From Azolla caroliniana (Eukaryota; Plantae; Polypodiophyta): a stretch of 64,000 bases of DNA. Below the pieces are notes generated by a model. The model did no database searches. It was not told where the DNA came from and saw nothing but the letters and a program-made list of their open reading frames with translations. Every line of letters begins with the position of its first letter. Position 1 is the first letter of the stretch. Positions 160-38,800 of the stretch are shown here, piece by piece. The DNA is taken from the NCBI GenBank assembly GCA_043228905.1, contig JBHGNT010000010.1, positions 16,120,001 to 16,184,000 on the forward strand. Reading direction: 5' to 3'. A program made the position numbers and the translations under genes.

Positions 160-176
160 TGGTGAACCCGACGTGA
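160..176 (+). other. Primer binding site of element A, complementary to the tRNA-Trp 3' end
   Basis: TGGTGAACCCGACGTGA is the reverse complement of ...TCACGTCGGGTTCACCA, the plant cytosolic tRNA-Trp 3' end as recalled. Confidence 0.85.
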
Positions 177-193
177 AACCGGGTGACAAGGAG

Positions 194-4800: not shown

Positions 4801-5319
4801 GCAGACCGGATCTCGCAAACTGGGGTCCGACGCAACCCCTCTAATCCGGGACTCGCTGCCCTCCGGTAAGGGTGCCGCGACTGGCCTTACCTTCCGGTCC
4901 ACAGTCTTCTACTTCGTGCTAACCCGGGCCGTCCGATCCGGCTCGAGCCCCTGACTGAAGTTCGCGATGACTTCGTACATCTCTTCGGAACATACCGGTA
5001 TCGTCCGGTCTTCGTTAAGGTCTTCTCCGGCTACCTTCCTCAGCATCCCCAAGGTGTCGTCGAAGGAGACCGCCTCCACGGCTCTGCTGATTTCCTCGTC
5101 CGGGCCGAGAACTCCGCACGCTCGAAGTCGCTCCTCTGCCCTTGCCTTTTCTCGGCCAACGATGCCGACTATCATACACCCTCCGTCGTTGGAGAAACAA
5201 AAAATTTTACCCATCGTACAAGGTTTCTTCGGTTTCGGTTCTATCGTACAACTGTGGGGTCTTTCCCGAGTGTCCGGACTGTCTCGGCCCCACGCCTTGG
5301 CAGCCCTCTCTAAAAATCC
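1855..5319 (-). pseudogene. pol: Element C pol (linker-RT-RNaseH-integrase) with a few stops, frameshifts and a small deletion
   Basis: ORFs 4909..5214, 3687..4706 (DLYSGYDQ, LPQG, FLDD), 3610..3840 (TVDTS RNaseH) and 1855..3495 (HHCC zinc finger, VDLV...DRGE...E core). No chromodomain. Confidence 0.9.
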
Positions 5320-8129: not shown

Positions 8130-8524
8130 GCGGAAAACGTAAAACAGAGAACAACACACAGGGAGAGAGAGAGAGCGAGAGAGACAGAGAGAGCAGAACA
8201 CAATTTCCAAAATTATATCAAGACTCTGTACTACACACTGTGCTAAGTAACACTATTTATACAAGTCCTCTTGGGACTGACAGAAGTACCATGTACTTCA
8301 ATGCTCACACGAGCATCTGACACTTACTACGAGACTATAGATACCTAGTAGTCTATCCTATTCTAGGCTTCCGATTGGACTACCGGTTACGGATTGCACC
8401 CGGCCTCCACTGCTTGCCGGTTCGGTTGCTCACCGTCATACCGATCTGTTTCGCCCGATCCGTCTCGCTTACCGGCTCCGGCTTATTCAGCCGATTCGGC
8501 TCCGGTTGAGCTTGCCGCTCAACA
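8130..8524 (-). repeat. Main part of the 3' LTR of Copia B (the remaining 21 bp lie at 1111-1131)
   Basis: Matches 13673-14067; adjacent to PPT TTGAGGGGGAG (- strand). Confidence 0.93.
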
Positions 8525-8542
8525 CTCCCCCTCAAGCTCAAC

Positions 8543-11500: not shown

Positions 11501-13561
11501 CCCAAAATACAGCTCATGAGCTGACACCTTGTCACCAATGCGGTTTTGTATGTAGACGGTCGTCTGGACCGCCTCCGCCCAGTAGAACCAGGGCATGGTC
11601 TTCTCCTCCAGCATTGTCCTCGCCACTTCGACGAGTGTCCGGTTCTTCCTTTCGGCCACACCGTTTTGCTCCGGTGTGTATATGCAGCTGACCTCTCGCC
11701 GAATTCCCTTCTGTTGCAGATAACGAGTGAATTGGCCGGAAAAATATTCCTTTCTGCCATCCGACCAAAGGCATTTGATCTTCCTCTCCGATTCCCGTTC
11801 CACCATCTTCTGGAGGCTCCGGAAACAGTCGAAGACTTCGCTCTTCCGCTCAATGAGGTAGATCCAAGTATGTCGAGTATAGTCGTCGATGAAGGAGACG
11901 AAGTATCGGCTCCCGCCAAGGCTTACACTTTGTGCCGGTCCCCACACATCCGAATGGATGAGATCGAGCTTGTTACGGCTCCGGTTCCGTTCGGTGGGGA
12001 ATGGAAGCCGGTGCTGCTTCCCAAGTTGGCAGGCTTTACAAATTTCGGCTCTCCGGCCGCTGAACTTCGGCAAACCGAAAACGACTTGTTTCGTTTGCAG
12101 ATCTTGAAGCCTCCGGTAGTTGACGTGGCCTATCCGCTTGTGCCACAGGTTGATGTCCGACTCGACCTTCTGTCGTTTCGCGAACAGAGCGGTGCCAAAG
12201 TCATTGGTGTCGAGGATAAACATCCTCCCGTCTCTGCGCCCTTGCGCAATGACTTCGCCCTCATCCTCAATGAAGCACCCGAGGTGCATAAACCGCACCT
12301 GCATCCCCTGGTCGACAATCTGACCGACGGACACCAGGTTCTTCGTGATCGTCGGAACGTGTAACACGTTCATCAGCTTCCCTTTCTGTCCGACGTGGCT
12401 TAGAGGGACTTCTCCGACGTGCACGATTGGGTGAGGAGTGTCGTCTCCGGTTTCGACTACTCCTGGTTGATCCAGTCTCTCCAGAAAGGAGAACCACTCT
12501 TTGTGGCTCGTCATGTGGTTCGACGCGCCGGAATCAACATACCACACTTCCTCCGATTTGGAAGTGGTCTTCTTCATTGAATTTGCCTTGTGATTCATCA
12601 CCAAGGCTGGCCCCTTACCGGCCTTTCCGGTTCCGGATCCTCCTGATCCGTTTGCGTAGTGCGAGTTTTGCCGGCCATCCTTACCGGTCTTGGCAGATCC
12701 GGATTTGTCCGAATCGGCACGCTTTCTCCAGCACTCGCTTTCCCTGTGGCCTTTTTTGCCACAGTACCAGCATTCCGTAGCGGATTTGTCTTGCCGGCCT
12801 CCGGCACCGCCTTGACTCCCCCTGCTTGTGGAAGTCCCGGAACTACTGTCGGCACACTCATAGTACCTCCGTTCCTGCTCTTGCCGGCCGCCTCCATTGT
12901 GTGCCGACCCACCTCTTCCACCACGCCCACAGTGCCGATCCGTTCCCGTGTACAGCATTCGGCTGTCCGGAGATGCACTAGTAGATGCACCGGCGTGGTT
13001 CTCCTCTACAAGGAGCATCAACTGTAAGTCGAAGAATGAGGGGGTATTCTCCCTTGTACACACCGCAGTCCGGAACGCTCCGAACTTGGACGCCAGGCCT
13101 CCGAGACATACTTGCACCATCTCGTCTTCCTCTACGGTAACATTGATAGAGGGGAGCGAGTCGCAGATCTCCTTTATCCGGCCCGTGTAATCTGCTACGG
13201 ACATGTTCTTTTGTCGAACATTGCTCAACTCCTGTCTGAGTTGCAGCTTCCGGGCAGTGGTGCTTGCGGCAAAAACCTTTTTCAGGTTCCCCCAAGCATC
13301 CTTCGGTGTCTTGGCGTCACGGATGTGGCTGAGCAGCTGATCGCCGACACTGGACGTGAAGCAGTACATCACCCTGCTTTCCGCCTGTTCCCATACCGGG
13401 AAGTCCTTGTGTGCCGAGTCTGGCGCCCCATCATTCACTCCTTCGACATAACTCCAGTACCCGTGTCCAAGCAGGTACTAGTGCATCTTGTAAGACCAGG
13501 ATGCGTAGTTGCTCCTGTCGAGCTTCTCCACCGGGAGCGACGTAGCCATGCCTCTATCCAT
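8543..13561 (-). pseudogene. pol: Copia gag-pol polyprotein with two in-frame stops (13478-13480, 9887-9889) and a ~235-aa C-terminal extension
   Basis: KLDRSNYASW N-terminus, CWYCGKKGHRESEC, WYVDSGASNHM, WHKRIGH...C..C, IHSDVWGP, KARLVAKGY, LLYVDD, YTDADWAG, TKHIEVHYHFVRE, ADIFTK. Confidence 0.93.
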
Positions 13562-13642
13562 GTCTTCTACTGTGTCTGTTCTCGACCTGTTAGGGTTTTC
13601 TTCTCAAGAGTAAATGTCTGCAGCAGAGGTTCTCAACCCTCG

Positions 13643-13655
13643 CGCTCTGATACCA
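13643..13655 (-). other. PBS of Copia B (tRNA-iMet)
   Basis: TGGTATCAGAGCG on the minus strand, directly next to the 5' LTR. Confidence 0.92.
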
Positions 13656-14067
13656 TGAAAACGTAAGTGTTTGCGGAAAACGTAAAACAGAGAACAACAC
13701 ACAGGGGGAGAGAGAGAGAGAGAGATACAGAGAGAGCAGAACACAATTTCCAAAATTATATCAAGACTCTGTACTACACACTGTGCTAAGTAACACTATT
13801 TATACAAGTCCTCTTGGGACTGACAGAAGTACCATGTACTTCAATGCTCACACGAGCATCTGACACTTACTACGAGACTATAGATACCTAGTAGTCTATC
13901 CTATTCTAGGCTTCCGATTGGACTGCCGGTTACGGATTGCACCCGGCCTCCACTGCTTGCCGGTTCGGTTGCTCACCGTCATACCGATCCGTTTCGCCCG
14001 ATCCGTCTCGCTTACCGGCTCCGGCTTATTTAGCCGATCCGGCTCCGGTTGAGCTTGCCGCTCAACA
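13656..14067 (-). repeat. 5' LTR of Copia B (412 bp)
   Basis: TGAAAACG...CTCAACA; matches the split copy. Confidence 0.95.
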
Positions 14068-14612
14068 GATCGAAATCGGATCCATTCGATGGACTCTCAA
14101 AAGCCACTCCGACCAAACTTTCGAAAAGGCGGCATGAAGAAGGTTGTAGAGGAGGAGATCGCGGCGAAAAACAACTATGCGACAACCGTGGGAATACGTG
14201 TGGGGGAGTCATCTGGAGCAAAGGCGTCTTTTTGGCCAGAAGCAAAGAAAGCCGACCATGATGACATCCGAAGCGCCACAGAATGTATCCGGGAAGCTAC
14301 GGGATGGGAGTGTCCCGTAGATAAGAATAGCGTACATGTGCTATGTCAATTGCATGAAGTGTATGTGGATGAACAACGGCGGCGCACGGATGATGCGGCT
14401 GGACCATCAAAGACGCCGGAGAGCTGGAACTCCGAAGGGAAGGGGAAAGGAAAAGCAATTCTGGCATTCAAACTCGCTTCGGACATCGAACAACAGACGA
14501 ACCTAAAGAAGGTGTTTGAAGAGAGAATCCTTGATAGTCGGGTGGAATTTTCGCTTCGGGAATTACTCGGAATAGCGAAGAAGGAGTTCCACGACCTTCT
14601 TGTGGATCTCAT
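14068..14612 (+). pseudogene. Element A gag-PR linker, middle part
   Basis: ORF 14089..14661 (FSLRELLGIAKKEFHD) is homologous to element C LPLREVLGIAKKEFHD and continues the 797-1110 frame. Confidence 0.85.
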
Positions 14613-15674
14613 TGTCGTGATGATCCGTCACTACGCACGGATCGTGAGGCGGAACCGCTAGGGTTCTGGACCGGAAGGACTCGAAGTTGGCGCAAGCTTT
14701 AGCGAGAAAGGAATTAAGATAGATTGAAAGAGAGAGATTGAGATAAGATAGAGCGCTTGATTTTAGATTGAGAGAGAGATTAAGAACTCTTGACTTTAGA
14801 TTTCAAGAACAAGGTATATCATCCAAAGGATAACGAATTTTCTTCTTAATATTAATTTTGATTTAAAGTACAAAGCTTTTTTTTATCAAAAAAACCCCAT
14901 TGATCTTTTTTTTCATTCCCTCTTTTATAGATGCCCTCATGCATTTGAGGGTTCAAGACATGCATAAAATGCATGTTTGCCATTTGGCACTCATGTATTA
15001 CATGTGGTGCATGATAACCATGTCACTCATTTTAGCTCTCATGTATGAGAATTTATATGTAAAAGTAAAATGATATAAATATAAATTCAACTAAATGTCA
15101 TAGCTTAGTGGTAAGCCTATTGACTCTTAACTAAGAAGTGCAAGGTTCGAATCCTCACTTGCCCTCCTTGTATATTATGTGATATTTATTTATTAATTTG
15201 GTCGCCGATTGCCGGTTCCACCGGCTCGCTGGCTCCGTTTCCGTCGGATGACGGTTCCGCCGGATCACCGGCTCCATCGTCGGTCCAGTTTTGGTTGGCC
15301 AAAACCTTTACAAGTAGCTAGGCCACCTCCACTCTTAGTTCAAGTTACCTTGAACTCTCTATTCTCCACACATAGACACAAAGATAATAACTTTTGCTCC
15401 ACCTTATATATGGTGAGAGCCTTATTCGTCCTGTCTATGTGGGATATCTCATAATTTTCTCTTTTTCTTTCGCAACTTCTTACCCACATAAGTTGACACT
15501 TAGATGTCTGTTTCTTATGTAGTAAAGTGCACCTCTTCAAGATCTTCGTCTTTTATACTAAGATATTAAACTTACTTAGAATTAGTATATTCACTATTAT
15601 TGTTTTATATGATTGACACTTGATTTTGTACGTTTTATGTGATTTTCACACCATTGCCAAAAATCTTCACGACA
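14613..15674 (-). repeat. 3' LTR of element D
   Basis: TGTCGTGA...TCACGACA; similar to 20008-21150; minus-strand TATA near 14924-14931. Confidence 0.9.
15094..15165 (+). other. tRNA-like Pol III module (A box + B box) in the U3 of the D LTR, antisense to the element
   Basis: TAGCTTAGTGG at 15101 and GGTTCGAATCC at 15144. D-arm GCTT/AAGC pairs; anticodon and acceptor stems are poor. Confidence 0.7.
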
Positions 15675-15794
15675 TCCACCCCCACCAAACCGCACGTCCT
15701 CCGGTACGTGCCAAGAAGAGAGAAAGTAAGATTTCGGCAATGGTGATCAGCATGACTCCTCCACGTCGAGCATGTCCTTTCCTTTGCACTCAAA

Positions 15795-17911
15795 TCATGG
15801 TTGCCAGCCAATCCACCATATCATTCGTCTTTTCTTTGCTTTACCATGACTTGTTGTCATGGCCCCTTGCTCCCTTCCTGAGAATAATCGTTTAAGTCTC
15901 ATAAATGTACCACCTTTGTCTTGATCGTCTCCTTGCTCAAGGCACTTGGACTCATTCACAGCAGTGTCTTTGATAGATGTTTTGATCACATCCGTCAAAT
16001 CCTCATGGCTCGCTTGGCCATCGCTATCCCTTGCCATATTTTGCGCAAATTCTTCGTTGCACGCATCAGCTTTAACCCTTACTTCTTCCCCATCACTATC
16101 CTTCTCTTGGGTCTTACATCAAGTAAAGCCCAAGTCTCCGGAAAGAGTGTGGAGGGACCTATACATTTCCGTCGTTTGCCTTTTTCGTGCCGCACTTAGC
16201 CATTTCCATCTTAATGTTTCTTGAATCAGCATTGATCTTTGCCTCCTTGTCGTCGTTGCGCGAATCAGCATTGACCTTTGCTTCCTCGCCGCCAGCTTCT
16301 GTCTTTTGCCGTATGTATTAGTTTCGGCCTTCGGTTCTTCGCCATCACCTCCCGTCTCTTGGGTCTTACATCGGTTCTCGGACGCAATTGCCCAAGTCTC
16401 TGGAAAGAGTGTGGAGGAAATTTGGTCGTCGTCATTATCTGTACTATCTTTGTCCTTGTCTTCCTTTTTGCCACCATTCGTCTCTCCGGTCTCACGTTGG
16501 TTCTCGGACACAACTGCTGAAGTCTCTAGAGTTAGTGGGCCGGATTCCTTAGTATCACCTTCCTCCATCATTTCGTCCATAGCCTCCTTCTCGGCTATCT
16601 CTTTATCATATACATCGGCTTTGACCTTTGTTGTCTCTCCTCCATCTTCCGTCTCTTCGGTCTCACCTTGCCTTTCGATCGCAACCGCTGAAGTCTCTGT
16701 AGTTAGCAGTGGGAAAGTCTCAACAGGACCAATTGCCATTGACTCGTTCATAGCCCTCTCCAACTCGATGTCGTTTTTCGTGGCTATCTCTTCAATCTCA
16801 TGGGCCTCGCACCCATTGACTCTCTTCATCGAACAAGCTTTGATTATCCTTCTCTCTTTAGCTTCGACCTCTGGTTCTTCGCCGCCACCTCCCATCTCTT
16901 GGGTCTCACGTTGGTTAGCGGATGTAACTGCCCAAGTCTCTAGTACAGCTGCGGAGAAAATCTCACCATGGTCGTTGTCGACTCTTGTTGTCTTCATATA
17001 GCCACCTCCTCGATTTTAGTGGTTAGATCCTCTATCATGTCGATCTCGCACTCTTTATCTCCTTTAATGCAAGCTTCGATTAGGCTTGCTCCTTCATCAT
17101 TCTTTGTTTCGAACACGACGCATGTTCTGAAACATTTGTCCTCCTTTGAAATGGTCGTCATCGTCCTCGACTCATCATCAATCTTCTTTTCATGTTGCAT
17201 GTGTTCTTTAGGCGTCTCTACTTCTTTGGATGGTTTTGCTTTCTCTATGATCAGCCTTACCAAGTCAATACCATCAAGCCATTGACGACGTCTATCGATC
17301 TTGTTGCATGCTTGCTTCACCGTAACCTAGTCCGCCACAAGCCTGTTCGCTTGGGTATCATCTTCGAGGAGAGTCCCCAACTGTCTTCTATCCTTCATGT
17401 CCACAACTTTTAAGAAGTATAAAGTCTTGTCCTCTTCAAGTAGCACTTGATCCGTGTTGGGGAGACGACCAAACATTTGGTTGAATTCGTCGTACACCCT
17501 CGAGGTGTTCATCTTCTTATTCTTCTTCTCTATCCACTTCATCAGGGCATGTCGAGTCATCCTTGTTGAGTCTTCAGTCGCGAACTCCACAAATATCGTT
17601 TTCTCGAACTCGGACCATGTTGTCTTCCCTTCTTGAAGTTCGATGACGCGTCTTTGAACGTTGTTGGCGACAACTCTCTTGAAGCTTGCAATTTGACGTG
17701 CTTCAGACATGTCCCTTTGATTCATCTCCCTTCTATATGCATCAAGGAACTTCGTAACGTTCCTTCCATCAAATTGGCCCTCGAGCTTTACGACACAATT
17801 GATAGCCTTCTCCACGCTCGTGTCGTTGTCCCGAGATCTCATCATTTGCTCGACGATTAGCATCATCCTTTCGAGCTCTCCCGCTTTGTTGCTTGAGGAC
17901 GCCATCTCCAA
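15795..17911 (-). pseudogene. gag: Element D gag followed by an acidic, repetitive ORF; broken by stops and frameshifts
   Basis: 17327..17911 (GQFDGRNVTKFLDAY, homologous to A gag), then 16994..17320, 16119..16997 (repeats of ET[WS]AV.S.NQ.ETQE.GG.GEE) and 15795..16037. Confidence 0.75.
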
Positions 17912-17972
17912 CTATTAATCTCAGCTTGATCCTTCCTACCGCCTCGTTCACATCGGGTTCACCACTTAATTA

Positions 17973-19959
17973 TGTCGTGAAGATCCGTCACTAGGCGCGG
18001 ATCGTGAGGCGGAACTGCCTGGGTTCTGGACCGGAAGGATTCGAAGTCGGTACAAGCTTTAGTGAGGAAGTATTTAAGATAGATTGGGAAAGACAGAAGT
18101 TGAGATTAAACGCTTGAACTTCGATTGAGAGAGATTGATTGCACTTTTATCTTTAGATTTAAGAAACAAGTTACACGATCAATTCGATAGCGAATTTTCT
18201 TCTTCTTAATTTCATAACCAATCCCTTCTTTTAAAGATGCTCTCATGCATATGATGCATGTGAGGGTACAAGACATGCATAAAATGCATGTTTGCCATTT
18301 GGCGTTCATGTATTACATGTGGTGCATGATAACCATGTCACTCATTTTAGCTCTCATGTATGAGAATTTCCATGTAAAAGTACAATGATAGAAATATAAG
18401 TTCAACTAAATTTCATGGCTTAGTGGTAAGCTAATTGACTCCTAACTTGGAGGTGCAAGGTTCAAATCCTTACTTGCCCTCCTTGTATATGTGTATATAT
18501 ATTTATATATTTATTTATCTCGTCGTCGTCCGCCGGTTCGCTGGATGTCGTCGCCTCGCCGGCGTCAGATGCATTGATTAATCACGGATCGGAGATCAAT
18601 TTGATGTCCAAGGAGTTCTACCGGAAGGGGAAGTGGCCTACAAACACTAACCATGGATGGAAGATCCGAGCAGCCACTAAAGCAACGGAAGATCTATTTG
18701 CGGCTTCTCCGGATCGGCAACATCAAAGAGCTCATGCTAGCATTGATTAATCACGGATCGGAGATCAATTTGATGTCCAAGGAGTTCTACCGGAAGGGGA
18801 AGTGGCCTACAAACACTAACCATGGATGGAAGATCCGAGCAGCCACTAAAGCAACGGAAGATCTATTTGCGGCTTCTCCGGATGTGAGGGTGAAGATCGG
18901 GGATGTCGAGATCGACCAAAATTTCTTCGTACAAGACGAGGTCTCACATTCCGTGATCCTACGGCAACCCTTTATCGCAGCTTCACGGATGGAGACAAAG
19001 GTGCTCGATAGCGGTGTGGCTTTCGCACGAATTCGGAGCCAAAGCGGAGGGAAATCCGTCCAATTCCTAACTGTGCCGGAAAATCATGAAAGGAACAAGA
19101 GAGAGGTCTTGTCCCAAACAAGGATGGATTTTTAGAGTGGACTATTGCGGAGTGGGGAAGTGATAGTCCGAGAAGCCCTGATACCCTACACAGGAAGAAA
19201 ACTCTCGGAGCAAAACAAGTACGAATCGGTCCAGATGGGGCATCTACGTACACGGTCGTAACTGGAGGAAAGAAGAAAGAATACCGAAAAATAGAGGATA
19301 AGTTGCGGTCGGCATCAATAATAAAAGAAGACGAAGAAATCATGGGGGTAGTCAAAGAAGTGTTCTATGGGATCACGCTACAACGGCTTGAAGAGCTTCT
19401 AGAGGATAAAAGCCGAGGAGACCGGGTAGTCCCGGTGGAATCGGTCGAGATGTACGAGATCATTGCGAAAATGGGGTAAGCTAATTGACTCCTAACTTGG
19501 AGGTGCAAGGTTCAAATCCTTACTTGCCCTCCTTGTATATGTGTATATATATTTATATATTTATTTATCTAGTCGTCGTCCGCCGGTTCGCTGGATGTCG
19601 TCGACTCATTTTAGCTCTCATGTATGAGAATTTCCATGTAAAAGTACAATGATAGAAATATAAGTTCAACTAAATGTCATGGCTTAGTGGTAAGCTAATT
19701 GACTCCTAACTTGGAGGTGCAAGGTTCAAATCCTTACTTGCCCTCCTTGTATATGTGTATATATATTTATATATTTATTTATCTAGTCGTCGTCCGCCGG
19801 TTCGCTGGATGTCGTCGCTCTTGAAGACCTCCATCATTTTGTACTTAGATATTAAACTTCTTTAAAATGTTATCTTCACTATTATTGTTTTATGTGATTA
19901 ATACTCGATTTTGTACGTTTTATGTGATTTTCACACTATTGCCGAAAATCTTCACGACA
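17973..19959 (-). repeat. Middle LTR of D: diverged variant containing a 907-bp filler from element A and internal duplications
   Basis: Starts TGTCGTGAAG next to the PBS and ends CTTCACGACA; 19475-19602 and ~19603-19817 repeat parts of 18340-18553. Confidence 0.8.
18571..19477 (+). repeat. 907-bp duplicate of the element A protease/linker region 21333-22239
   Basis: Nearly identical (about 7 substitutions by eye), including the same 169-bp tandem duplication. Confidence 0.9.
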
Positions 19960-20007
19960 TCTCCTCCATCTTCCGTCTCTTCGATCTCACGTTGCACCAC
20001 TTAATTA

Positions 20008-21150
20008 TGTCATGAAGATCCGTCACTACGCGCGGATCGTGAGGCGGAACCGCTAGGGTTCTGGACCGGAAGGACTCAAAGTTGGCGCAAGCTTTAGCGG
20101 GAAAGGAATTAAGATAGATTGAAAGAGAGAGATTGAGATAAGATAGAACGCTTGATTTTAGATTGAGAGAGAGAGTAAGAACTCTTGACTTTAGATTTCA
20201 AGAACAAGGTATATCATCCAAAGGATAACGAATTTTCTTCTTAATATTAATTTTGATTTAAAGTACAAAGCTTTTTTCTATAATAAAAAAAGTCCCATTG
20301 ATCTTTTTCATTCCCTCTTTTATAAATGCCCTCATGCATTTGAGGGTTCAAGACATGCATGTTTGCCATTTGGCGCTCATGTATTACATGTGGTGCATGA
20401 TAACCATGTCACTCATTTTAGCTCTCATGTATGAGAATTTATATGTAAAAGTAAAATGATATAAATATAAATTCAACTAAATGTCATGGCTTAGTGGTAA
20501 GCCTATTGACTCTTAACTAGGAAGTGCAAGGTTCGAATCCTCACATATATGTGATATTTATTTATTTATTTGGTCGCCAGATGTCGTCGGTTACCAGTAG
20601 TTGTCGTCGGATGCCGATGCGCCGGCGCCGGTTACCGTATGTCGTCGCCTCGCCGGCGCCGGATGCCGTCGGATGTCGGTTCCACCGACTCGCTGGCTCC
20701 ATCTCCGTCGGATGACGGTTCCGCCGGATAACCGGTTGCCGGTGTGCCACCGTCGCCGGTCCAGTTTTGGTTGGCCAAAACCTTTACAAGTAGCTAGGCC
20801 ACCTCCACTCTTAGTTCAAGTTACCTTGAACTCTATATGCTCCACACATAGACACAAAGATAATAATTTTTGCTCCACCTTATATATGGTGAGAGCCTTA
20901 TTCGTCTTGTCTATGTGGGATATCTCATAATTTTCTCTTTTTCTTTCGCAACTTCTTACCCACATAAGTTGACACTTAGATGTCTGTTTCTTATGTAGTA
21001 AAGTGCACCTCTTCAAGATCTTCGTCTTTTATACTAAGATATTAAACTTACTTAAAATTAGTATATTCACTATTATTGTTTTATATGATTGACACTTGAT
21101 TTTGTACGTTTTATGTGATTTTCACACCACTGCCGAAAATCTTCACGACA
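20008..21150 (-). repeat. 5'-most LTR of element D
   Basis: TGTCATGAAG...CTTCACGACA, flanked by TSD TCGT; tRNA-like module at 20487-20540. Confidence 0.9.
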
Positions 21151-21897
21151 TCGTGAAGAGAAAAAGACAACATACGGAGGAAAATGCTTCAAGGGTAAAT
21201 ACGAACATGGTTTTAATGAATGACACCGAAGTGGAGGACGAAATTACGAACTCCCACTACACAAGGCCACACTGGGCACGTGCAACTACGGAGACTCCGG
21301 TCCGAATCGGCAACATCAAAGAGCTCATGCTAGCATTGATTAATCACGGATCGGAGATCAATTTGATGTCCAAGGAGTTCTACCGGAAGGGGAAGTGGCC
21401 TACAAACACTAACCATGGATGGAAGATCCGAGCAGCCACTAAAGCAACGGAAGATCTATTTGCGGCTTCTCCGGATCGGCAACATCAAAGAGCTCATGCT
21501 AGCATTGATTAATCACGGATCGGAGATCAATTTGATGTCCAAGGAGTTCTACCGGAAGGGGAAGTGGCCTACAAACACTAACCATGGATGGAAGATCCGA
21601 GCAGCCACTAAAGCAACGGAAGATCTATTTGCGGCTTCTCCGGATGTGAGGGTGAAGATCGGGGATGTCGAGATCGACCAAAATTTCTTCGTACAAGACG
21701 AGGTCTCACATTCCGTGATCCTACGGCAACCCTTTATCGTAGCTTCACGGATGGAGACAAAGGTGCTCGATAGCGGTGTGGCTTTCGCACGAATTCGGAG
21801 CCAAAGCGGAGGGAAATCCGTCCAATTCCTAACTGTGCCGGCAAATCATGAAAGGAACAAGAGAGAGGTCTTGTCCCAAACAAGGATGGATTTTTAG
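21151..21897 (+). pseudogene. Element A protease region with a 169-bp frameshifting tandem duplication
   Basis: HWARATTETPV, ALINHGSEIN (catalytic D replaced by N), ends MDF-stop; 21306-21474 repeated at 21475-21643. Confidence 0.85.
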
Positions 21898-24800
21898 AGT
21901 GGACTATTGCGGAGTGGGGAAGTGATAGTCCGAGAAGCCCTGATACCCTACACAGGAAGAAAACTCTCGGAGCAAAACAAGTACGAATCGGTCCAGATGG
22001 GGCATCTACGTACACGGTCGTAACCGGAGGAAAGAAGAAAGAATACCGAAAAATAGAGGATAAGTTGCGGTCGGCATCAATAATAAAAGAAGACAAAGAA
22101 ATCATGGGGGTAGTCAAAGAAGTGTTCTATGGGATCACGCTACAACGGCTTGAAGAACTTCTAGAGGATAAAAGCCGAGGAGACCGGGTAGTCCCGATGG
22201 AATCGGTCGAGATGTACGAGATCATTGTGAAAATGGGGTTGGATGCGCTCCACAGAAGAAGCAATGGTAAGTACAAAATACAAGACCGTGGAGAAGAAAG
22301 TGAAACCGGCCACGGAACCGTTACCCTCCGATAGCAAGCAAAAGAGGAAAGAAGTCTCGGGAGATCCGACACTTTCGGAAGTCCGTGGATATCAGACATG
22401 CCTTCACGGATGAGACCCAAAAGAAACTTTGGATCGGTGGAGGTGGTTTCCTTTTACAAAATCAAGAAGAATGATTCGTGGGATGTTGGAACAACATGGG
22501 AAAGCATTTGCATTCACATCGAAGGAGATAGGGTGCGTTGATCGAAGATAGTGGAACCGATGGTGATCTTCACGATTGACCATGTGTCGTGGAACTTGAA
22601 GCCGATTCCGGTGCCACAGACGCATATTCCCAAAATCATCGACTTGCTCAAGGAGAAGGTGGCGATGGGGATTCTAGAGCCATCAAACGCTCCGTACTCA
22701 AATCGATGGTTTACGGTTCCGAAGAAGAATGGGTCACTCCGATTTATCCAAGACTTGCAACTGGTGAACAAGGTCACGATCCGGAACTCCGGAGTCGGTC
22801 CAATAGTGGACGAATTTGCGGAAACATTTGTCGGTCGTGCAATATACTCCATCGGAGACCTATACTCGGGGTATGACCAATTCCAACTAGCCATCGAGAG
22901 CCGAGACATCACTACCATGCGGACACCGATAGGATTAGTTCGAATGTGCACACTACCACAAGGAGCGACAAACTAGGTTGCACATATGATGAACGCGATG
23001 AACAAGGTGCTTTGAGATTGCATTCCGGAGATACCGATGTCGTTCCTAGATGACATTCCGATGACAGGATGCACGGTAGAAGAAAAAGATGAAACTATGG
23101 ATGATCGGGGATGCCTAAAGTTTGTAGTCAACCATATTCGTGATTGCGAGAAAGTGCTTCGAAAGTTAGAAGATGTGCACCTAACACTTTCCGGGGAGAA
23201 ATCGGCATTCGGGCAAGAAGAGATATTGGTACTCGGACATCTATGTGGGCCCTACGGCCGAAGACCGTCTCCAACCAAGATCGATGCGATTCAAGCTATG
23301 AAAGAAGTATGCGAGTCATAATCCGAAGTCCGAAGCTTTCTTGGAGCTTGTGCATTTTATCACATATAGATTCCGCACTATGCACATATTGCGGACCCAC
23401 TCTATCACTTATTGCAGAAGGGGAAGAAGTTCGAATGGAAACCGGAACACGCCAAAGCCATGAAGAAGCTCAAGAAAACATTACGGAGGGCTGAAGCACT
23501 TAAGAAGCCGAGCTATGAGCGACCAATCATAGTAATGGTTGATACAAGTCCAACCGGGATCGCATGGGTCATCAATCAAGCCGACTCGGATGGTTTGCAA
23601 TATCCGATCCGATTCGGAGCAAAGGTTCTTAACGAAAGGCAACGCGGATATGCACAAGTCAAAAGAGAATTATGAGGAGTCGTGTCAGCAATCAAATCGG
23701 ATCCAAATTATTTGATTGGAGCCAAAGTAGTGATCGAAACGGATTGTTTTCCGATACTCGGGATGATGTGGTGTTGCACGATACCGGATGTGGCTATGCC
23801 AAGGTGGATTGCATATGTTAAGTCACTTAACCCGGAGGTACGACACATCTCCGGAAAAGACAACGTGGTAGCAGATATGCTATCAAGGGCTCGGTTCGGA
23901 GACGACATAACCGAATCCGATAATGAAGAAGTTTCTGAAGACTACTTTGCTTCGGAGCACATATGCCGGGTGAACGTAATCCGAGTATTCCGGGAAGAAG
24001 AATAGGAGGGAGAAAGCTTGTTGATCGGGAAAGTGCTACAAGAAATGGAGGAATCATCGGACAATAAAGAGAAGAGAGCCGAGATCCGAAGTAAGAAGCG
24101 GCAAGTTCGAAAGTTCTTCTTGAAAAATGGATTAATATGGAGGGAGCCAAAAAGACCGGATGGCATACCACTTTGAGTAGTCAGGACGAAAGAGCAACGA
24201 AACCGGATAATGTCCGAGTTTCACGAATCTGATTGGGCTGGAAATCAAGGGACATGGGCAACTTTTGCGAAAATCAAACAAAAATATTGGTGGAAGAATA
24301 TGTAAAAAGATATAGCGGAGTTCACGGAAAGCTGCGAGAAGTGTCAAATCTACTCCGGAGTTCGACACCGAGATGAGTTACATCCGACATTCTCACCGAC
24401 AATCAACTTCAAATGGATGGTCGACATTGTAGCCATGCCAACCGGGATCGAACAAAAGAAGTACTTGGTGTTAGCTCGGGAAGATCTCACAAACCAAGTA
24501 GAAGGTCGGGCGCTACGAAGGAAAACGTGTTCTACGGTATGCGAATTTCTTTTGGAGGAGGTGTTTTGCAGGTACGGGTGCGTAGGACAAGTGATTGCGG
24601 ATCGGGGAGAACTTGACTCTAATAAAGCTAGGGAATTCTTCACCAAACATGGAGTTCGGTTAACACTAACAACGGCATACAATCCGGAGGCCAATGGGAA
24701 AATCGAACGAGGACATAGTCCAATCGTCAAAGCACTGCATGCAACGGAAGGGCGAAGGATTGACCGCAGATGCTCCTGTATGCACTATGGGCAGATCGGA

Positions 24801-25420
24801 CGACGCATAGCTCTGTAACCTGTTATATGCCGACAGAACTTATGACCGGACAAGCACCGGTAATGCCGATGGAAACCGCGATCGCGACATGGACAATGCT
24901 ACCGTGGAAGGAAGAGATGAGCCAGGAAGAACTACTAGCGGTCCAGATACGACAACTAGAGGGAAGACCGGAAGACATAGCGGAAGCAACACGCCGACAA
25001 CAAGAAGCGTGATTCCAGATCAAAAGCCGATTCGATACAAAGCACCGACTACGACCACGGAAGATTGAAGAAGGAGATTGGGTGATTGTCTATGGCAGTA
25101 GTTTGGATCATCAACATACAACGATACGGAAGTTCGCGAAAAGGTGGTTCGGGCCATACGAGGTTCAGAAAGTTTTCGACAACGGAACTTACCGACTATG
25201 CAAGTTGGATGGAACGATACTACGAGTGCCTATAGCACGGAAATGGGTAAAGATCTTCAAGAAGCGAACTGACGATGAACCCTATGTAACCCTAGACAAG
25301 ACCGACAATGAGGAGCAACCGGACAAAGACCGCAGTGATGCGGAAAGCGAAGAAAGTGGACTTCAACTCGTAGTCAACATAAGGGGAGAATCGGAGAGTG
25401 TTACGGATGAAGGCGAATAA
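21888..25420 (+). pseudogene. pol: Element A pol (RT-RNaseH-integrase), many stops and frameshifts
   Basis: Fragments DLYSGYDQ, LPQG, FLDD, MVDTS, ETDC, VDIVAMP, DRGELD, AYNPEANG, WFGPY. Confidence 0.9.
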
Positions 25421-25476
25421 TGAGCATTGGAAACTTCGGCACATACCGGAGGATGTGCGGGTTTGGAGGGGGCGAG

Positions 25477-26264
25477 TGTCGTAGTGTAAATGGCACACTA
25501 TGAGAAAATTGCATTTTTGGTTCCTCCGGATGGGACGAAGCAGAGCCGGCAAGAGCCGGATGAAGAAAGTCGGTAAGAACCGGTAAGGAGGATCCGGTAA
25601 GAACCGGAACAAGCAGAACCGGCAAGAGCCGGATAAAGAAGGTCGGTGAGAGTCTCTCACCGGATGAAGAGACAAATTTGTAAAATAGAAGAAAATATTT
25701 ATTACGTGCATAGGGCAAGATTTAAACCTTGTACCTCCACGTAGATAAACCCCAACCTTACCATTGTACTAACTTATCCTAAGTGTTCTAAATATAGATT
25801 TAATACGTACAAGACCTTTATTTACGCCTACCTTTATTAAAAGGTAATTCATGCATTTTTAGAATGCGTGAATACTTTAATTATAAGAAAAATGTACACC
25901 AATAAAAAATTACCCGTGCACATTTAGTGTGCATGAACACTTTAGAAAAAGCATGAAACTATGCTTAGCCTCTTCCATCCTTATATAATATATTCGTGGG
26001 ATGTATGAGGTTGTTGATTTTTTACAAGGATTGATCAATCTAATATATTCATGGGATTCACGAGTTTATCATCAAAATTCTCTTTCTTATAATCTAAATA
26101 TTGATTAAATACACTAAACACGTGGGATTTCCAAGATTTATTTCTTACTTCTCTTTCTACCTATTTCATAACTAGCCTTATATTGTATTCTTCTTTCTCC
26201 TAGTCCAAAACCTCAGTGGTTCCCACCCGACTCACGCAACGATCCAGAGCCGAAAGGCACGACA
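25477..26264 (+). repeat. 3' LTR of element A (788 bp)
   Basis: TGTCGTAG...CACGACA after the PPT; CCGG-rich short repeats at 25545-25665; TATA near 25982. Confidence 0.9.
25706..25778 (-). other. tRNA-like Pol III module in the U3 of the A LTR, antisense to the element
   Basis: Minus strand reads TAGTACAATGGTAAG...GGAGGTACAAGGTTTAAATCTT, with the same 43-nt A-to-B box offset as the D module. Confidence 0.55.
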
Positions 26265-30439: not shown

Positions 30440-31320
30440 TGGGGGCTTGGTGATATGCGCGTAATGGGGAATCCAAATGTGGTAGAAGGTGTGAGCTCCC
30501 AGGAACTGTCGGACCTTTGTGACTGGCCTGCACTCTTCCTTCATCGTCGTGATGGCCTCTACCTTGGCCAGAGACGGTTTCCGACCATAAGGTCCACACA
30601 GGTGTCTGACCACCAAAACCTCCGATTGTCCGAACACCGACTTCTCCCCAGAGAAGGTAAGTCGAGCGCCCTCAAGCCTTCGCAACATTTCTCGTAATCG
30701 GAGATGTGGTCTGCAACGAATTTACGACATCCATCTGTTCCAACTGTTTCGTCCTTCGTGTCCTCCGAACATCCCTTAATCAGGATATCGTCTAGAAACG
30801 GCATGGTGATGTCCGGGATGCAATCCCTCAGCACCTTATTCATTGCATTCACCATGTGTACCACCGAATTGGTACCTCCTTGAGGTAGGGTACACATCCG
30901 AAGTAAGCCGAGAGAGGTGTCAAGATTCGAACTCTTGACACGACCATGTTATAATCTACTATTATGAGTTAACCAAGATATCTAGTACTAGTTATGTATG
31001 TAATTGGTCCTTATTATTTTGCTAGCATCGTGTGCATAGTTGCTCCCTTGTAGTATTTACACTTGGCACATGCATGCATACCTACATGCTCTATTGTAGA
31101 TTCACATGCGTGCAACAAGTATGCATGCCATGTAGTATAAATAGAGGAGTTCACCTTGAAGGAATTCAAGGTGAACAACACCAGTTATGGAGTCTTTCCT
31201 TTAGTACTATCTTCTTTCTTGTCCATTTGGTTATCTTCTTGGTTGTCTCTCGAGTTTATGATCTGTGACAGTTTGTTCACCTTCCCATCCTCATAGCTCT
31301 CCCTCTCATAAGCCATAGCT

Positions 31321-32337
31321 ATGTCCGACTCAACTAGTGAGTTAGGCCAAATAATGGTAGCCTTACGACAACTACAGCTTGAAAATGAAGCTCTTCGAAA
31401 TTCTTTACAAGAACTTCAAGTCGGTACCTCCCTATCCTCACAACCCCCGAACCCTAGTCTCCCACAACAACCTAGCCTAGAGCCCGATCTTCTACCAACA
31501 TCTAGCCTAGCTTCGTCACAGTTTCTTGAGCCTAAGGTTAGCCTCCCAAAAAAATTTGATGGAACGAGGTCGCGTTTCCGAGGGTTCATCAACCAAGTTC
31601 GACTTATCATTCGGCTACAACCTCAACGTTATGGAGATGGTCTTCGACAAGTCGGCCTTGTGGGCACCCTTCTCTCTGGTCCGGCCCAAGCTTGGTTTGC
31701 ACCATTGGTAGAAACCTCATCACCTTTATTGGAGGACTTTCCCACCTTCCTCGCCGAGTTAGAGGCCACATTTGGAGAGACGGACCGACGACGTACAGCT
31801 CTTAACAAGATTTATGCACTCGAACAAGGTTCACGTGCAGCTTCGGTCTATGCTTCCGAATTTCGACAACTAGCATGCGACGTCAATTGGGATGATCAAG
31901 CTTTAGCTGATCACTTTCGGCGCGGTCTTCGAAGCAATGTCAAGAATCTTCTCTTAAACTTTCCGGAGCCCACCTCGTTATCCCAAGCGATATCACAAGC
32001 AGTCCATTGTGACAATCGTCTTTTCGAATTTCGCCAAGAAGAGCGCCGGACTTGGGTTCCACCTCATTCACTTCCACGCCACGCCCCGGTCATACAACCC
32101 CAAGCATCCTCACACTCGTCTACTTCGGCAGATGCTCCTGTCCCCATGGAAATTGATCAAGCCCGATTTCGGCCATTGACTGATGCTGAACGACAATTTC
32201 GGCGGGCTAATGGCTTGTGCATGTATTGTGGCGCCTCCGGTCATGTCGTTCGCCATTGTCCTAGGAGTACTCGCCCACAATTCCATCGAGCTAACAGACC
32301 CCAACATCCGGAAAACGACATCGTTCGGTTGCAGTAG
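31321..32337 (+). CDS. gag: Chromovirus Gag (intact ORF, 338 aa)
   Basis: PKKFDG, LEQGSRAASVYASEF major homology region, PMEID, CMYCGASGHVVRHC knuckle. Confidence 0.9.
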   Translation: MSDSTSELGQIMVALRQLQLENEALRNSLQELQVGTSLSSQPPNPSLPQQPSLEPDLLPTSSLASSQFLEPKVSLPKKFDGTRSRFRGFINQVRLIIRLQPQRYGDGLRQVGLVGTLLSGPAQAWFAPLVETSSPLLEDFPTFLAELEATFGETDRRRTALNKIYALEQGSRAASVYASEFRQLACDVNWDDQALADHFRRGLRSNVKNLLLNFPEPTSLSQAISQAVHCDNRLFEFRQEERRTWVPPHSLPRHAPVIQPQASSHSSTSADAPVPMEIDQARFRPLTDAERQFRRANGLCMYCGASGHVVRHCPRSTRPQFHRANRPQHPENDIVRLQ

Positions 32338-35300
32338 GAGCCATGCAACTGGACATCTCCCGTCGCCCACATTCTCTTGGTTCCATTGCCGGACCATCAG
32401 GCAATTTCACATTGGAGGTATAGCTTTCGTTTAACTCTAGTTCCATTCAGTCTGTTGCTTTACTTGATTCTGGGGCATCTTCTTGCTTCATCGACGTCAT
32501 GTTTGCCCAAGCACATGGCGTACCTGTCGTTGGCCTCTCAAAACCCATTCCAGTTGAAGCCATCGACGGGTGCGTCCTCTCGTCAGGTGCAATTACTCAA
32601 GCTACAATCCCATTAGGGCTTTGGGTGGGCTCACACCAAGAGGAGCTCACCTTTTACCTCATCGCATCTCCTCGACATCTGATCGTCTTAGGACTAACGT
32701 GGTTGGAGGCGCACAATCCAATAGTGGATTGGTGCAACCGCTCGATCACATTTAGCAAGTCAAGATGCTCGTGCAAAAGTATGAAGGTAAATTCAGTTTC
32801 CTATCCTTCGGAGACGGTCGACTCCGAATTGACTACCCCATCATCCGTCCAGGATGGGTTTGTTTGTGGCGCCGTTTCTAACACACTCCATGTTATTCCC
32901 GAAAAATACCAACACTTCTCCGACGTATTTGAAAAATGTAATGTTGATCGGTTGCCTGAACACCGGCTCTACGACTGTCCGATTGATCTTCAAGAAGGTG
33001 CGTGTCCACCATTTGGTCCTCTATATGCGTTGTCTGCACCAGAGTTGAAGGCCCTTCGTGTGTATCTCGATGAGAACCTCGAGAAAGGCTTTATTCAACC
33101 TTCTAAGTCACCAGCCGGGGCCCCCATTTTATTTGTGAAGAAGAAGGACGGCTCTCTACGCTTATGCGTCGACTACCGAGGTCTCAACAAACTCACTGTG
33201 CGCAACCGCTATCCGCTACCTCTAATCCCCGAACTCCTTGATCGGCTCCGAGTTGCGCGTGTCTTCTCCAAAGTTGATCTGCGTGGCGCGTACAATCTAG
33301 TACGCATCAAGCCGGGGGATGAATGGAAAACCGCATTTCGAACACGGTATGGGCATTTCGAATACAAGGTAATTCCTTTTGGTCTTACTAACGCTCCCGC
33401 AGTTTTTCAACATATGATGAACGATATTTTCCAGGAATATCTTGATCTTTTAGTTGTCATTTACCTCGATGATATTCTCATTTTCTCGCCAAACATGGAG
33501 GAGCACACTCGCCAAGTCCGATTAGTTCTGGCCAAACTTCGCGAGCATGGCCTTTATGCCAAAGGCGAGAAATGCGAGTTCGACCGTACCTCGATCGAAT
33601 TTCTGGGCTACATCATCTCGCCCACTGGCATCACCATGGATATGAAGAAGGTCTCTGTCATTCAGGCGTGGGCGACTCCAAGGCGACTTAAATATGTGCA
33701 ATCCTTCCTCGGCTTCGCGAATTTTTACCGTCGCTTCATCAAGGGGTTTTCCACCCTAGCACAACCTCTTATCGCTCTCACCCATAAAGGCACTCCATTT
33801 TTATGGACCTCGGAGGCACAAAATGCGTTCGACTCACTCAAACACGCATTCATCACTGCCTCGGTGCTGCTACATGCCGACCCCACAAAACCCTTCCAAG
33901 TCGAAACCGATGCCTCTGACTTTGCCATTGGCGCCATCTTATCCCAAGCAGACGACAACAACCTAATGCACCCAGTGGCTTACTATTCCCGAAAATTTAC
34001 GGCATCCGAAATCAATTATCCCATTTACGACAAGGAGCTTGCTGCTATCATTGCTGCCTTTGAAGAATGGCGACCCTACTTGGCCGGCGCACAACATCGT
34101 GTCCAGGTAGTGACTGATCATAAAAATTTAGTTTATTTTTCCACCACTCGTACTTTGAATCGAAGGCAGGCCCGTTGGTCTACATTTCTCGCCGACTACG
34201 ATTTTGAGATCGTATTTCGACCTGGTGGCCAACATGGGAAGGTTGATGCCCTTTCTTGCCGAGCTGACCTTGCACTCCGCCCTGGGGATGCTGCTTATGC
34301 TCAACAATCTAGACGTTTGTTGAAACCCGACCAATTGCATCTGTTTGCCACTTGTATGTTGCAGGATGATTCTTTACTCCAACAAATCACTGATTCGAGA
34401 TAGTCTGCAAAACCCCTCCAAGGCGACCAAAAGGAAGGATATTGACACCTTCACCATACAAGAGGGTTTGTTGTTCTGAGATCATCTCTTATACGTCCCA
34501 GAGGGCCCATGTCGCACCCGGGTGTTGCGGGAATGCCACGATGACCCACTTGCAGATCATTTCGGGGTCGTGAAAACCCTCGAGCTAATCTCTCGGGGGT
34601 ATTGGTGGCCACAACCATGGAAGTTGGTCAAAGAATACATAAAGAGTTGTGAGGTTTGTGCTCGCTCCAAAGCCATTCATCATCGGCCATACGGCTTACT
34701 ATAGCCGCTTCCATGTCCTCGTCGTCCTTGGGCCTCTATCTCTATGGACCTGATAACTGATCTACCCTTGGTCAATAGCTATGACTCGGTGTTGGTCGTT
34801 GTCGATCGGTTTACGAAGATGGCTCACTTCACTCCATGCTCCAAAACCATTTCCGGAGAAGGAATGGTGCATCTCCTACTCAACAATGTAGTACGCTTGC
34901 AAGGACTCCCTGATGATGTCATCTCGGATCGCGGACCCCAGTTTGTCTCTCACTTCTGGCAGCGCCTGCTACAAACTTTAGGCATCTCTGTCAAGTTGTC
35001 CTCCGCTTATCACCCCCAAACTAATGGGCAAACGGAGTGTGTCAACCAAATCCTTGAGCAGTATCTTCGGTGCTCGGTTAGTTACCAACAAGATGATTGG
35101 GTCAACTTACTTTCGCTCGCGGAATTCGCCTACAATAATTCTCTCCATGCATCGACTGGCGTCACTCCCTTCTTTGCCAACTACGGTTTACATCCTCGCT
35201 TCAACATTTCCCTTCCTACCACTTCCGTGAACCCTTCGGCGGAGGATCGTGCCCGCATTTTGGAAGAAGTACATCATGATTTATCCTTGGAGCTTAGTCT

Positions 35301-35859
35301 TGCTAGTGAACGATACAAGAAGCAGGCTGATCGCCATCGATCTTCCACTCCACACTTTGTCGTTGGAGACATGGTCTGGTTGTTACGTCGACACATCTCT
35401 ACTACTCGTCCATGTGCGAAACTTGATTACAAGAAGTTGGGACCATTCCGTATCATCGAGTGCATCAATCCCGTCGCCTTCCGGCTCGCCCTTCCATCCC
35501 ACTTCCGGATTCACGATGTTTTTCATGTCTCCCTCCTCGAACCCCGTTATGCTTCACAACTCCCAAGCCGTCAAGCCCCACCACCACCACCTGTGCAATT
35601 GACGACAGGGGAGGAATACAAGGTCGACCAAATCCTTGACTCGCGTTGGCACCGTCGACACTTGCAATACCTCGTCCTATGGAGGGGTTACCCCATGTCT
35701 GAGGCCACATGGGAACCATCGGCAAATTTACAAAATGCCCCAAAGGTCGTCCAAGATTTTCATCACCGATATCCCCACAAACCAGCGGCCGATTTGGGAA
35801 GGCGACGTAAGAGGGGGGATAATGTCAAGATTCGAACTCTTGACACGACCATGTTATAA
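32310..35859 (+). pseudogene. pol: Chromovirus Pol (PR-RT-RH-INT-chromodomain) in the -1 frame, with nonsense and frameshift lesions
   Basis: LLDSGASS, YLDDILI, ETDASDFAIG, DKELAAI, HHCC, SDRGPQF, GPF, and EYKVDQILDSR...YLVLWRGY...TWEP chromodomain. Stops near 32420, 34401 and 34702. Confidence 0.92.
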
Positions 35860-38800
35860 TCTACTATTATGAGTTAACCAAGATATCTAGTACTAGTTAT
35901 GTATGTAATTGGTCCTTATTATTTTGCTAGCATCATGTGCATAGTTGCTCCCTTGTAGTATTTACACTTGGCACATGCATGCATACCTACATGCTCTATT
36001 GTAGATTCACATGCGTGCAACAAGTATGCATGCCATGTAGTATAAATAGAGGAGTTCACCTTGAAGGAATTCAAGGTGAACAACACCAGTTATGGAGTCT
36101 TTCCTTTAGTACTATCTTCTTTCTTGTCCATTTGGTTATCTTCTTGGTTGTCTCTTGAGTTTATGATCCGTGACAAGAGGTATGCATCGTCGTGATGTCC
36201 CTACTTTCAACGGCTAGTTGGAACTGGTCGTACCCGGAGTATAAGTCTCTGACTGAGTAGATGGACCTTCCGACGAAGGCCTCCGCGAACTTATCGATTG
36301 TCGGCTCAACCCTTGCGTTACAAATGGTCACCTTCTTGACCGGCTGCAAGTCCTGAATGAAGCGTAGAGTGTTGTTCTTCTTTGGCACTGTGAACCACCG
36401 ATTTGAGTACGGGGTACTCAACGGCTCGAGGATCCCCATATCGACCTTCTCCTTGAGCAGCTCCATCAACTTCGAGATGTGAGCTCTCGGAACCAGAATC
36501 GTCTTGAGATTCCACGGTACATGCGGTACTATGAAGATCACCATCAGTTCCACAATTGTCGGGTCGACGCACCCGATCTCCCCCGGCGAATATGCAAAGG
36601 CCTTCCTGTGCCTCTCGAGAATTCTCCGAAACAAGTTCTCCTCCACCGGTAGTAGAAAGCCAGCCCCACTGATCTTCAACTTCCGAAGTGTCTCTTCGGT
36701 AAACCGGTGCCCTATGCTAGCCGGATCTCATAGACTTGGGTCGGTCGCGACCCCTCTCATCTGTTCCTAGTTGTCCTCTAGTAAGGGTGGCGCAACTAGC
36801 CTTACCTTCCGGTCCACATTCTTGTACTTAGTGTCCCTCTAAGCGGTCTGATCCGTTCCGACCATTCTTCCAAAGTCCGCAATGACTTCGTACATTTCGA
36901 CTAAACTAACTGGAATCATCTAGTCTTCGCTTAGATCCTCTTCAACTACCTTCTCAATCTCCTTGATGGTGTCGTCAAATGAGACCGCCTGCACGGCACC
37001 ACTGATCTCATCATTGGGGCCCAAGGCTCCACATGCCTTAAAGCGCCCTTCGACCTATCTTTTCTCCTGGCCACCGATGTTGGTTATGGTACAACCTCCA
37101 TTAACAGAGGGCCAAAATTTCCTACCTATTGTACAGGTATGGGGATTCTTCTAGACGTCCAGACTATCGCGACCTCTTTCAAAAATCCTCTCGGCTTTCG
37201 CCGCCAAGAGATTCTATGTTCCTCTCGTGGTTCGGCCTAACCGTCAAGAACTAGACGGAGTGTCGTCCGTCCTGGCTCTCCACCCACGCATATGTCAAGG
37301 ATGGAAACCGGGGTCTCTATCGCAACCCTTGCCCAGTGTGGCTTCATGTAGTGACTATCCCGAAAACCCTCTTCCATTACCACTTCTTCGATGTGGACCG
37401 CCTTCACCTCGATCGGCTTCTCCGGCTTCGGCTCCTCTTCACGAGGTCAATGATCGAGTCATGGAACTTTTTCTTTGCAATTCCCAGTACTTCTCTTAAC
37501 GAGAGTTCCACCCTCTTGTTGAGGATCCACTCCTCCTCTAAGACCTTCCGCATGTCTATTGTCTTCTCGATCGCCAAGCTCAACCAGAAGCTCAGGAACT
37601 TCATCCTCTCCTGTGAGCCAGCCGGACCCCCGTCATTTTTCTTCGGTCCGCTCCAAGTGTTGTATTGGTTAGAGGGATCGGCCCCTCTGGCCTTCATGGC
37701 CCGCTTGTCTTCAACCAGAACCTCGTAGTTCTTGCACGTGACTTCCACGAAGCCGGTTTTGTCCTCCACTGGATCACTCCATCCAGTGTCCTTTTAGACC
37801 CGCATCTCCACACAGTCTTCTTCTTCCCTCTTCAGTTTCTTCCCAAAGAAGCCTTCCAGTATAACCAGCCAAAATCCGGTGTTGCTTCTGGAGCCAGTGC
37901 CCTTTTCTCCACCTACCCAGATGTCGGCTCAAGCCGAGTAGTGGATGGCCTCGACATGCCGCACCGCAACTTCTTCCATTATCCTCTTCATCCCCCCTCA
38001 ACTAGTGTTCAGCTCGAGGGGTTTCCGAGTCTCACAAGTGTGTACTTGGTCGTTCCACAAGTACACGACATTGTTCTTGATCGCGTCGGTACAATTAGTG
38101 TAGTCTCTTCGAACATGGTCGACAACGTCGCACAACATGCATCTCTAATCTATCGGTGGGCGTCAATCGCGTGATTTTAACCGCCGCCTTCCCTCTGGGG
38201 CTGAGCAATCTAGAGGTCTCATACCATCTTCGTTAGCTCCTCCAAAGTTGCGTCCCCGGATTGCCGCTTGACCACGTTGGTCGGAACCACACCCGACTTG
38301 AGCCACCTTCTTGTATCTCCAGACCGAGTCGGAATCGGTTCTTTCGACCTCCTCTCGGCAGCCAAGCCAGCCTTTGACGACCCCGCGTTGTTCCATTCTC
38401 ACCGTTTGTCGAAACGGCTGCAAACTCCCTTAACCACAACCCAGTCAATCGTGACGCCGTCGTCCGTCTCCAAGAGGAGACCAACCTTCTCACGGTCATG
38501 CAGGTCAACCGACTTGATGAAAAACAACACCTTGCTCATGTCGAGCACGGTCCGATCTAGCGCCGATAATCCCGTGAATCGCTTCTCGAATTCTTGGAGG
38601 AGCGTTGATGTGTTCCATCCTTTGTCAAGCGACTCAACCCACTCCATGAACTCCCTTTTAGACAACCAGAGCGAGTCGTCGAAGCCATATTTTTCGAGGA
38701 GCCGTCCCTCGAATTCCATCCAATTCCGGCATGCGGCTTGAACCTCGAGCACTTCCACGTGGATGCTCGGCATTACGACCCGAGGGAATCCTCCGGGATA

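Follow-up and report, generated by a model that had tools for sequence, protein, structure and literature searches.

How reverse transcriptase (RT) comes to be translated in a retrotransposon whose Gag-protease frame closes ahead of it is the question raised by element A, one of the LTR retrotransposons nested in a 64,000-nt stretch of Azolla caroliniana DNA (contig JBHGNT010000010.1, positions 16,120,001 to 16,184,000; hereafter the window). The protease frame of this element terminates ...RMDF* at a motif spanning 21888-21951, which an earlier note on this DNA had described as a frameshift pseudoknot, and the motif is present base for base as described there: GGATTTT TAG with a 6-nt spacer, a 10-bp stem that can form between GGACTATTGC and GTGATAGTCC (2 G-U among the 10 bp), a loop GTGGGG that can pair with CCCTAC 14 nt past the stem, and an open -1 frame across the site (Table 1). 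The most probable answer, to which we assign a probability of about 85%, is that this is a programmed -1 frameshift signal, G GAU UUU with a predicted H-type pseudoknot 6 nt later, lying between protease and RT in a Phygy-like Ty3/gypsy lineage.

Table 1. Coordinates of the putative frameshift signal and of associated features in the window
Feature	Position	Strand	Remark
Element A primer binding site	160..177	+	complementary to tRNA-Trp 3' end
Element C signal	5254..5319	-	element C = 1132-8129, 7.0 kb, 650-bp LTRs, 98% alike
Second copy of the signal, in duplicated piece (~18571-19476)	19126..19189	+	identical to the copy at 21888
Element A Gag-protease frame, protease end	21367..21897	+	decayed; downstream of 169-nt internal duplication
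Open -1 frame over the site	21852..22334	+	start of linker toward RT
Slip heptamer G GAT TTT	21888..21894	+	last two codons, Asp-Phe, of Gag-protease frame
6-nt spacer	21895..21900	+	contains TAG stop (21895-21897); TAA, TAG and TGA all found here in relatives
Stem 1, 5' strand	21901..21910	+	conserved core 21901-21908
Stem 2, 5' strand (loop GTGGGG)	21914..21919	+	
Stem 1, 3' strand	21922..21931	+	core 21924-21931
Stem 2, 3' strand	21946..21951	+	CCCTAC here, CCCCAC in 28/28 other A copies
Element A RT, RNase H and integrase remains	22270..24882	+	stops and frame breaks in window copy
Element A 3' LTR	25477..26264	+	92.7% to 5' LTR, whose end is window position 154
Element F signal remnant	37130..37188	-	retains slip site and TGA; deletion of 5' stem arm and loop

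The elements carrying the signal

The window is plant nuclear DNA (an SBP-domain ORF lies at 55323) made up of nested LTR retrotransposons. Element A is interrupted by such insertions, its gag being split by those at 1132-8129, 8130-13972 and 14600-21150, and its protease/frameshift region occurs twice, at 18571-19476 and 21164-22240, in near-identical form, each with a 169-nt internal duplication. The signal copy at 19126, as an internal duplicate, is therefore not independent of the one at 21888. The window copy of element A is decayed and is unlikely to yield any product. Among its neighbours are a nearly intact Copia polyprotein ORF at 9887-13477 (-) and a chromodomain-bearing Ty3/gypsy element at 31312-35859 (+), itself inside another element, with 300-nt repeats at 30918 and 35823. 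Ordinary G-rich purine tracts precede the 3' LTR of element C (1782-1800, -) and of element A (25443-25476, +).

By primer site and target duplication, elements A and C match the entry for Phygy, a non-chromovirus Ty3/gypsy clade, in the plant LTR reference set, and may belong to it. Both have tRNA-Trp primer sites, their target duplications (GTGG/GCGG for C, GCGT/ACGT for A, with one mismatch each) are NCGN-like and 4 bp long, and no Chromo match was found in the integrase ORF of element C. A tRNA-Trp primer site, a 4-bp NCGN-type duplication, the lack of a chromodomain and homologs in Physcomitrium patens are features that A and C have in common with the Phygy clade as presented in the available text of PMC6317226, which lists Phygy elements at 7.7-10.0 kb, longer than the 7.0 kb of element C, and gives their polyprotein organisation as not determined. 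The Gag-protease region bears DUF4100, and its nearest atlas clusters include proteins from Basidiomycota and Mucoromycota, which we take as a lead only. Elsewhere in the genome, matches to the tRNA-Trp 3' pattern cluster at C8:17796786-17823371 (with ~1.2-kb spacing) and C16:4989495-5105657, and these clusters are possibly tandem tRNA gene arrays.

Slip site and reading frames among relatives

A slip-stem-loop pattern matched 2378 places in the 523 Mb of genome searched, against 0 for the reversed control; the matches are repeat copies, and further families were found among copies chosen by protease motif alone. A metagenome scan gave 80 related loci, 74 of which have a slip-type heptamer at the end of the ORF (one of the others ends before its stop and five are without such a heptamer). 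The heptamer is GGATTTT, directly before TAA (28), TAG (25) or TGA (11), in 64 of these 74 loci. In the 0 frame, G GAT TTT is a variant of the strict X XXY YYZ form.

Gag and protease form a single ORF, ~600-830 codons long, that stops at the slip site or a few codons later, and the linker and RT lie in the -1 frame. The KYK motif that precedes RT could be located in 57 loci; it is in an open -1 frame in 54, in a -1 frame with a stop in one and in the +1 frame in two. In nine long contigs, the 0 frame upstream of the site runs for 591-828 codons without a stop and includes a CCHC knuckle, and an uninterrupted -1 frame extends downstream over 654-1000 codons. Protease homologs occur in Physcomitrium patens (gene models), Riccia and Adiantum; homologs end in DF in 53/120 and 65/120 cases, other ends being GF, NF, or DF/GF followed by five residues, and none of the 113 testable longer homologs has an RT motif in frame after the protease. 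In three families (L144, L157 and L158, the last with the heptamer G GGT TTT) the Gag-protease frame stops only within the loop of the predicted pseudoknot, five codons past the slip site, with unchanged geometry. This stop-in-loop class, which includes proteins with a VPL end from P. patens and Adiantum, was not found in the present genome, and a scan of viral contigs recovered no relative.

Poly(A) reads from a related organism cover element C in both directions (119 and 86 reads, with a depth of ~13x and 8x in the junction bin); these thin data, in which DNA carry-over is possible, list no RNA joint on element C. Across the site in element A there are ~2 reads, all from a single one of three runs, and coverage this thin, like that of element C, is not used as evidence.

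Under the proposed mechanism, most ribosomes would stop at the end of the ORF and yield Gag-protease, and a minority, held up by the pseudoknot, would move back by one base and yield Gag-PR-linker-RT-RH-IN, so that slippage would set the ratio of Gag to Pol and bring RT into the particle. In wheat germ extract, the G GAU UUU of pea enation mosaic virus (PEMV; PMC4737148, text available in part), which has a stop close by, promotes -1 frameshifting, and frameshift stimulators are located 5-9 nt downstream of their slip sites according to the accessible part of PMC5009743.

Two other routes to RT were considered. Splicing, with TTTTTAG as the 3' splice site or with an intron across the stop, would follow the example of Ogre, for which the consulted section of PMC6317226 describes a spliced non-coding gap of ~274 bp. 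In the present elements the frames overlap at the slip site, beyond which the -1 frame stays open, leaving no non-coding gap, and the length changes of C-type copies preserve the frame. The TAG of the supposed acceptor is replaced by TAA or TGA in 39 of the 64 GGATTTT-stop loci, and the occurrence of all three stops after the slip site argues against a splice acceptor; with the stop free to vary and no gap to remove, splicing is the least probable reading of all. Nearly as improbable is that RT is reached by termination and re-initiation or from an internal start, the structure serving some other step such as packaging. In the +1/-2 family discussed below, a pol-frame ATG does precede the slip site by a few codons, but all 28 of the -1 families are without a Met in the short -1 stretch before the site and their first Met is unconserved, ranging from codon 3 to codon 111, which makes such a start unlikely. 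It would also leave aside that the slip heptamer is kept at the nucleotide level and at a fixed distance of 6 nt from the stem.

The predicted pseudoknot downstream of the slip site

The structure was examined in 29 families, picked by hand from the 74 loci as one per distinct sequence type, with near-duplicates and most damaged low-depth contigs excluded, and drawn mostly from a single set of assemblies. Together with window elements A and C they gave an alignment of 31 rows, which MAFFT returned without gaps and which was thus not fitted to the structure. Stem 1 pairs in 87.1% of the 310 cells of this alignment, with two-sided changes at 8 of the 10 pairs; neither the paired fraction nor the score was reached in any of 500 shuffles, and partners slid out of register pair in 24-44% of cells. 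The conserved core is 8 bp long (pair 9 fails to form in 15 of the 31 rows and pair 10 in 18), and the same 8-bp stem was recovered unprompted by RNAalifold. This stem and a 6-nt spacer occur in 28 of the 29 families, the spacer being 5 nt in the remaining one. When the -1 frame peptide of each family was kept and its codons were redrawn synonymously, 138.8 +/- 5.9 of the 232 core cells were paired (maximum 159 in 1000 redraws) vs 226 in the real sequences, an excess so large that protein constraint does not explain stem 1. On the protease-RT tree there are 35 changes of state among the eight core pairs, with only 6 of the 232 cells unpaired. Tree-aware contrasts are of low power, with 1-2 independent ones per pair, none opposite in direction and none significant. 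Taken on comparative sequence grounds, stem 1 may be regarded as established.

In element A itself, a 41-nt hairpin is more stable than its shuffles (z -5.2, 0/200 equal or better); 75-nt regions folded with the pseudoknot term omitted gave z -0.86 for A and 0.13 for C, no better than their shuffles. Rfam holds nothing near gathering score for the signal (best E 4.6). A second hairpin, upstream of the slip site and ending right at it (window 5320-5345, -), was seen in C-type (L084, L093) and L119-type families with z -2.6 to -4.2, and resembles an attenuator. As a general feature it was rejected, z being below -1.64 in only 6/29 families vs 10/174 control windows.

The earlier note had argued for selected RNA structure from elements A, C and F, and that argument fares less well than the structure it was meant to support. 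The compensatory change it saw between the stems of A and C (GGACTA/TAGTCC vs GGGCTG/CAGTCC) does not hold up: the sole two-sided difference is stem pair 6, A-U in A and G-C in C, and 24 of 28 other copies of the A family have G as their sixth base, three have T and just one has A. As the sixth-base A, like the T of CCCTAC, which is C in all 28, is a change of the window copy, the A and C families differ by one-sided changes only. Element F does keep G GAT TTT TGA, GATAGTC and CCCCAT, as had been noted, but is uninformative on pairing because its 5' stem arm and GGGG loop are missing; it scores 18.7 bits (E 0.18) under a model that gives C and A 65-77 bits, both of these being in its training set. 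It is on the 29 related families, rather than on covariation among A, C and F, that the conclusion stands, and selected RNA structure at a putative -1 frameshift site is supported by them.

Stem 2 is likely rather than established. In a fixed register it is 76% paired, and 71% at a slide of +2, the latter because the loop of C-type elements is 2 nt longer. Five families that are quite different in sequence (L156-L158, L128 and L100) retain both stems, and for their loops the family's own downstream window is beaten or equalled by only 0-5 of 28 others. It could nevertheless be that the -1 frameshift is real and that the hairpin of stem 1 is its only stimulator, the pairing of loop and downstream sequence being weak or absent in some families. 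Against a protein-preserving null, stem 2 reaches p<=0.05 in 14 of the 29 families and is not significant in the other 15, Trp-Gly and Pro-His codons partly account for the G-rich loop and its C-rich partner, and in some families the stem has just 4-5 bp. At the Tca2 gag-pol junction, a predicted pseudoknot failed a reporter test (PMC7175516, seen in part). We consider a hairpin acting by itself improbable, though less so than splicing or an internal start, as in 24 of the 29 families the best partner of the loop is the expected window (compared with up to eight later windows, the window having been chosen post hoc) and A-U for G-C swaps are found on either side of stem 2.

A +1/-2 family and the place of the signal among known systems

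One family in this genome (family E, e.g. L161-L180) departs from the -1 layout. Its site reads CAG GTT TTT (G/T)AC TAG, with 92 exact pattern matches in the genome and 0 for the control, and 16 of the 20 copies examined read the protease in frame 0, with KYK lying in +1; among the other four, later indels are seen or implied in three and an earlier indel in one. The metagenome locus L128 (2497-2571) shares this layout, with 757 open codons before the site and 987 after it. Between L128 and nine genomic copies, dN/dS is 0.03-0.05 for the protease, 0.06-0.08 for RT and ~0.24 for the linker; such low values indicate purifying selection and, at dS 0.7-2.0, imply that the +1/-2 arrangement has long been replicating and is not that of a dead copy. 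In a subgroup of family E (C4:8854874, C4:9268899, C10:8496539 and others) TAG replaces CAG just before the slip site, and these copies would be inactive.

Family E and L128 retain both predicted stems, but their spacer measures 5 nt, not 6, and they slip at a putative RG GUU UUU site. This is the arterivirus -2 motif (PMC5644247), and a spacer shorter by 1-2 nt favours -2 over -1 slippage (PMC3458567), as far as the available text of either paper goes. G GUU UUU and the spacer shorter by one nucleotide would thus give a -2 slip onto the same pseudoknot, and the family is likely a naturally occurring change from -1 to -2 slippage. The main alternative would be polymerase slippage on the T run or a +1 frameshift, +1 and -2 events yielding an identical frame that the sequence alone cannot separate. 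We nonetheless think this unlikely, though it is the strongest of the competing explanations considered here: the motif is the one on which arteriviruses slip by -2 (PMC5644247), the downstream structure is retained, the spacer has changed in the direction favouring -2 (PMC3458567), and in most copies tRNA-Phe would come to rest on UUG after a +1 slip. Restart at the nearby ATG could, on sequence, also provide RT in this family. The layout of L160, one low-depth contig of a family not found in this genome, fits the spacer-length rule, with G GUU UUC, a 6-nt spacer and RT in -1.

Resemblance of family E to the arterivirus nsp2TF site (PMC5644247, bioRxiv 10.1101/2021.11.17.468997, both in part) extends to the shared RG GUU UUU. 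In arteriviruses a protein complex is bound 10 nt downstream at a C-rich sequence and no RNA structure is involved, as described in the accessible text of PMC5644247, whereas family E has a predicted RNA stem 5 nt downstream; the family may function as a -2 site, though by a system other than that of arteriviruses. The -1 signal has its closest counterpart in PEMV RNA2, with the same G GAU UUU heptamer, a nearby stop and a 3' structure within 5-9 nt; the PEMV structure is a large hairpin with long-range pairing and its stop comes 3 nt later (PMC4737148, in the part available), in contrast to the compact local pseudoknot predicted here in a nuclear retrotransposon.

Among retroviruses, Rous sarcoma virus has its protease at the end of Gag. 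At its gag-pol junction, too, a -1 slip takes place close to where the first ORF ends, a pseudoknot is present, and an RT-containing precursor results (PMC5009743, in part). The present elements differ from it in being plant LTR retrotransposons, in their heptamer and in the linker of 120-155 residues before RT. The literature searched on moss, plant and related fungal retrotransposons, in which few subscription papers were covered and Repbase lay outside the search, describes no such signal, and neither ORFs nor frames are mentioned in the accessible part of PMC7466625; with the same limited coverage, no matching description was found in the literature on -2 sites with pseudoknots or on the heptamer. 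What we have is likely a known kind of mechanism in a new place, after the protease of plant nuclear elements, with a -1 to -2 switch in one family. On balance we favour, at odds a little better than even, an old moss, liverwort and fern lineage that would use a pseudoknot-driven frameshift after the protease to make RT, and in which one long-lived family would have turned from -1 to -2 through the loss of one spacer base and a change of GAU to GUU.

If this is right, these elements would provide a high-copy -1 signal in plant nuclear DNA with some 29 natural variants, and would account for gene callers ending these proteins at DF. The signal would then likely be present in the model moss P. 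patens too, to judge by its protein endings. The -2 family, if truly such, would provide a naturally occurring case, in a nuclear element, of -2 frameshifting driven by RNA structure and, as one of a pair of signals built on one structure, a natural test of the model linking spacer length and mRNA tension (PMC3458567, as far as its available text sets this out).
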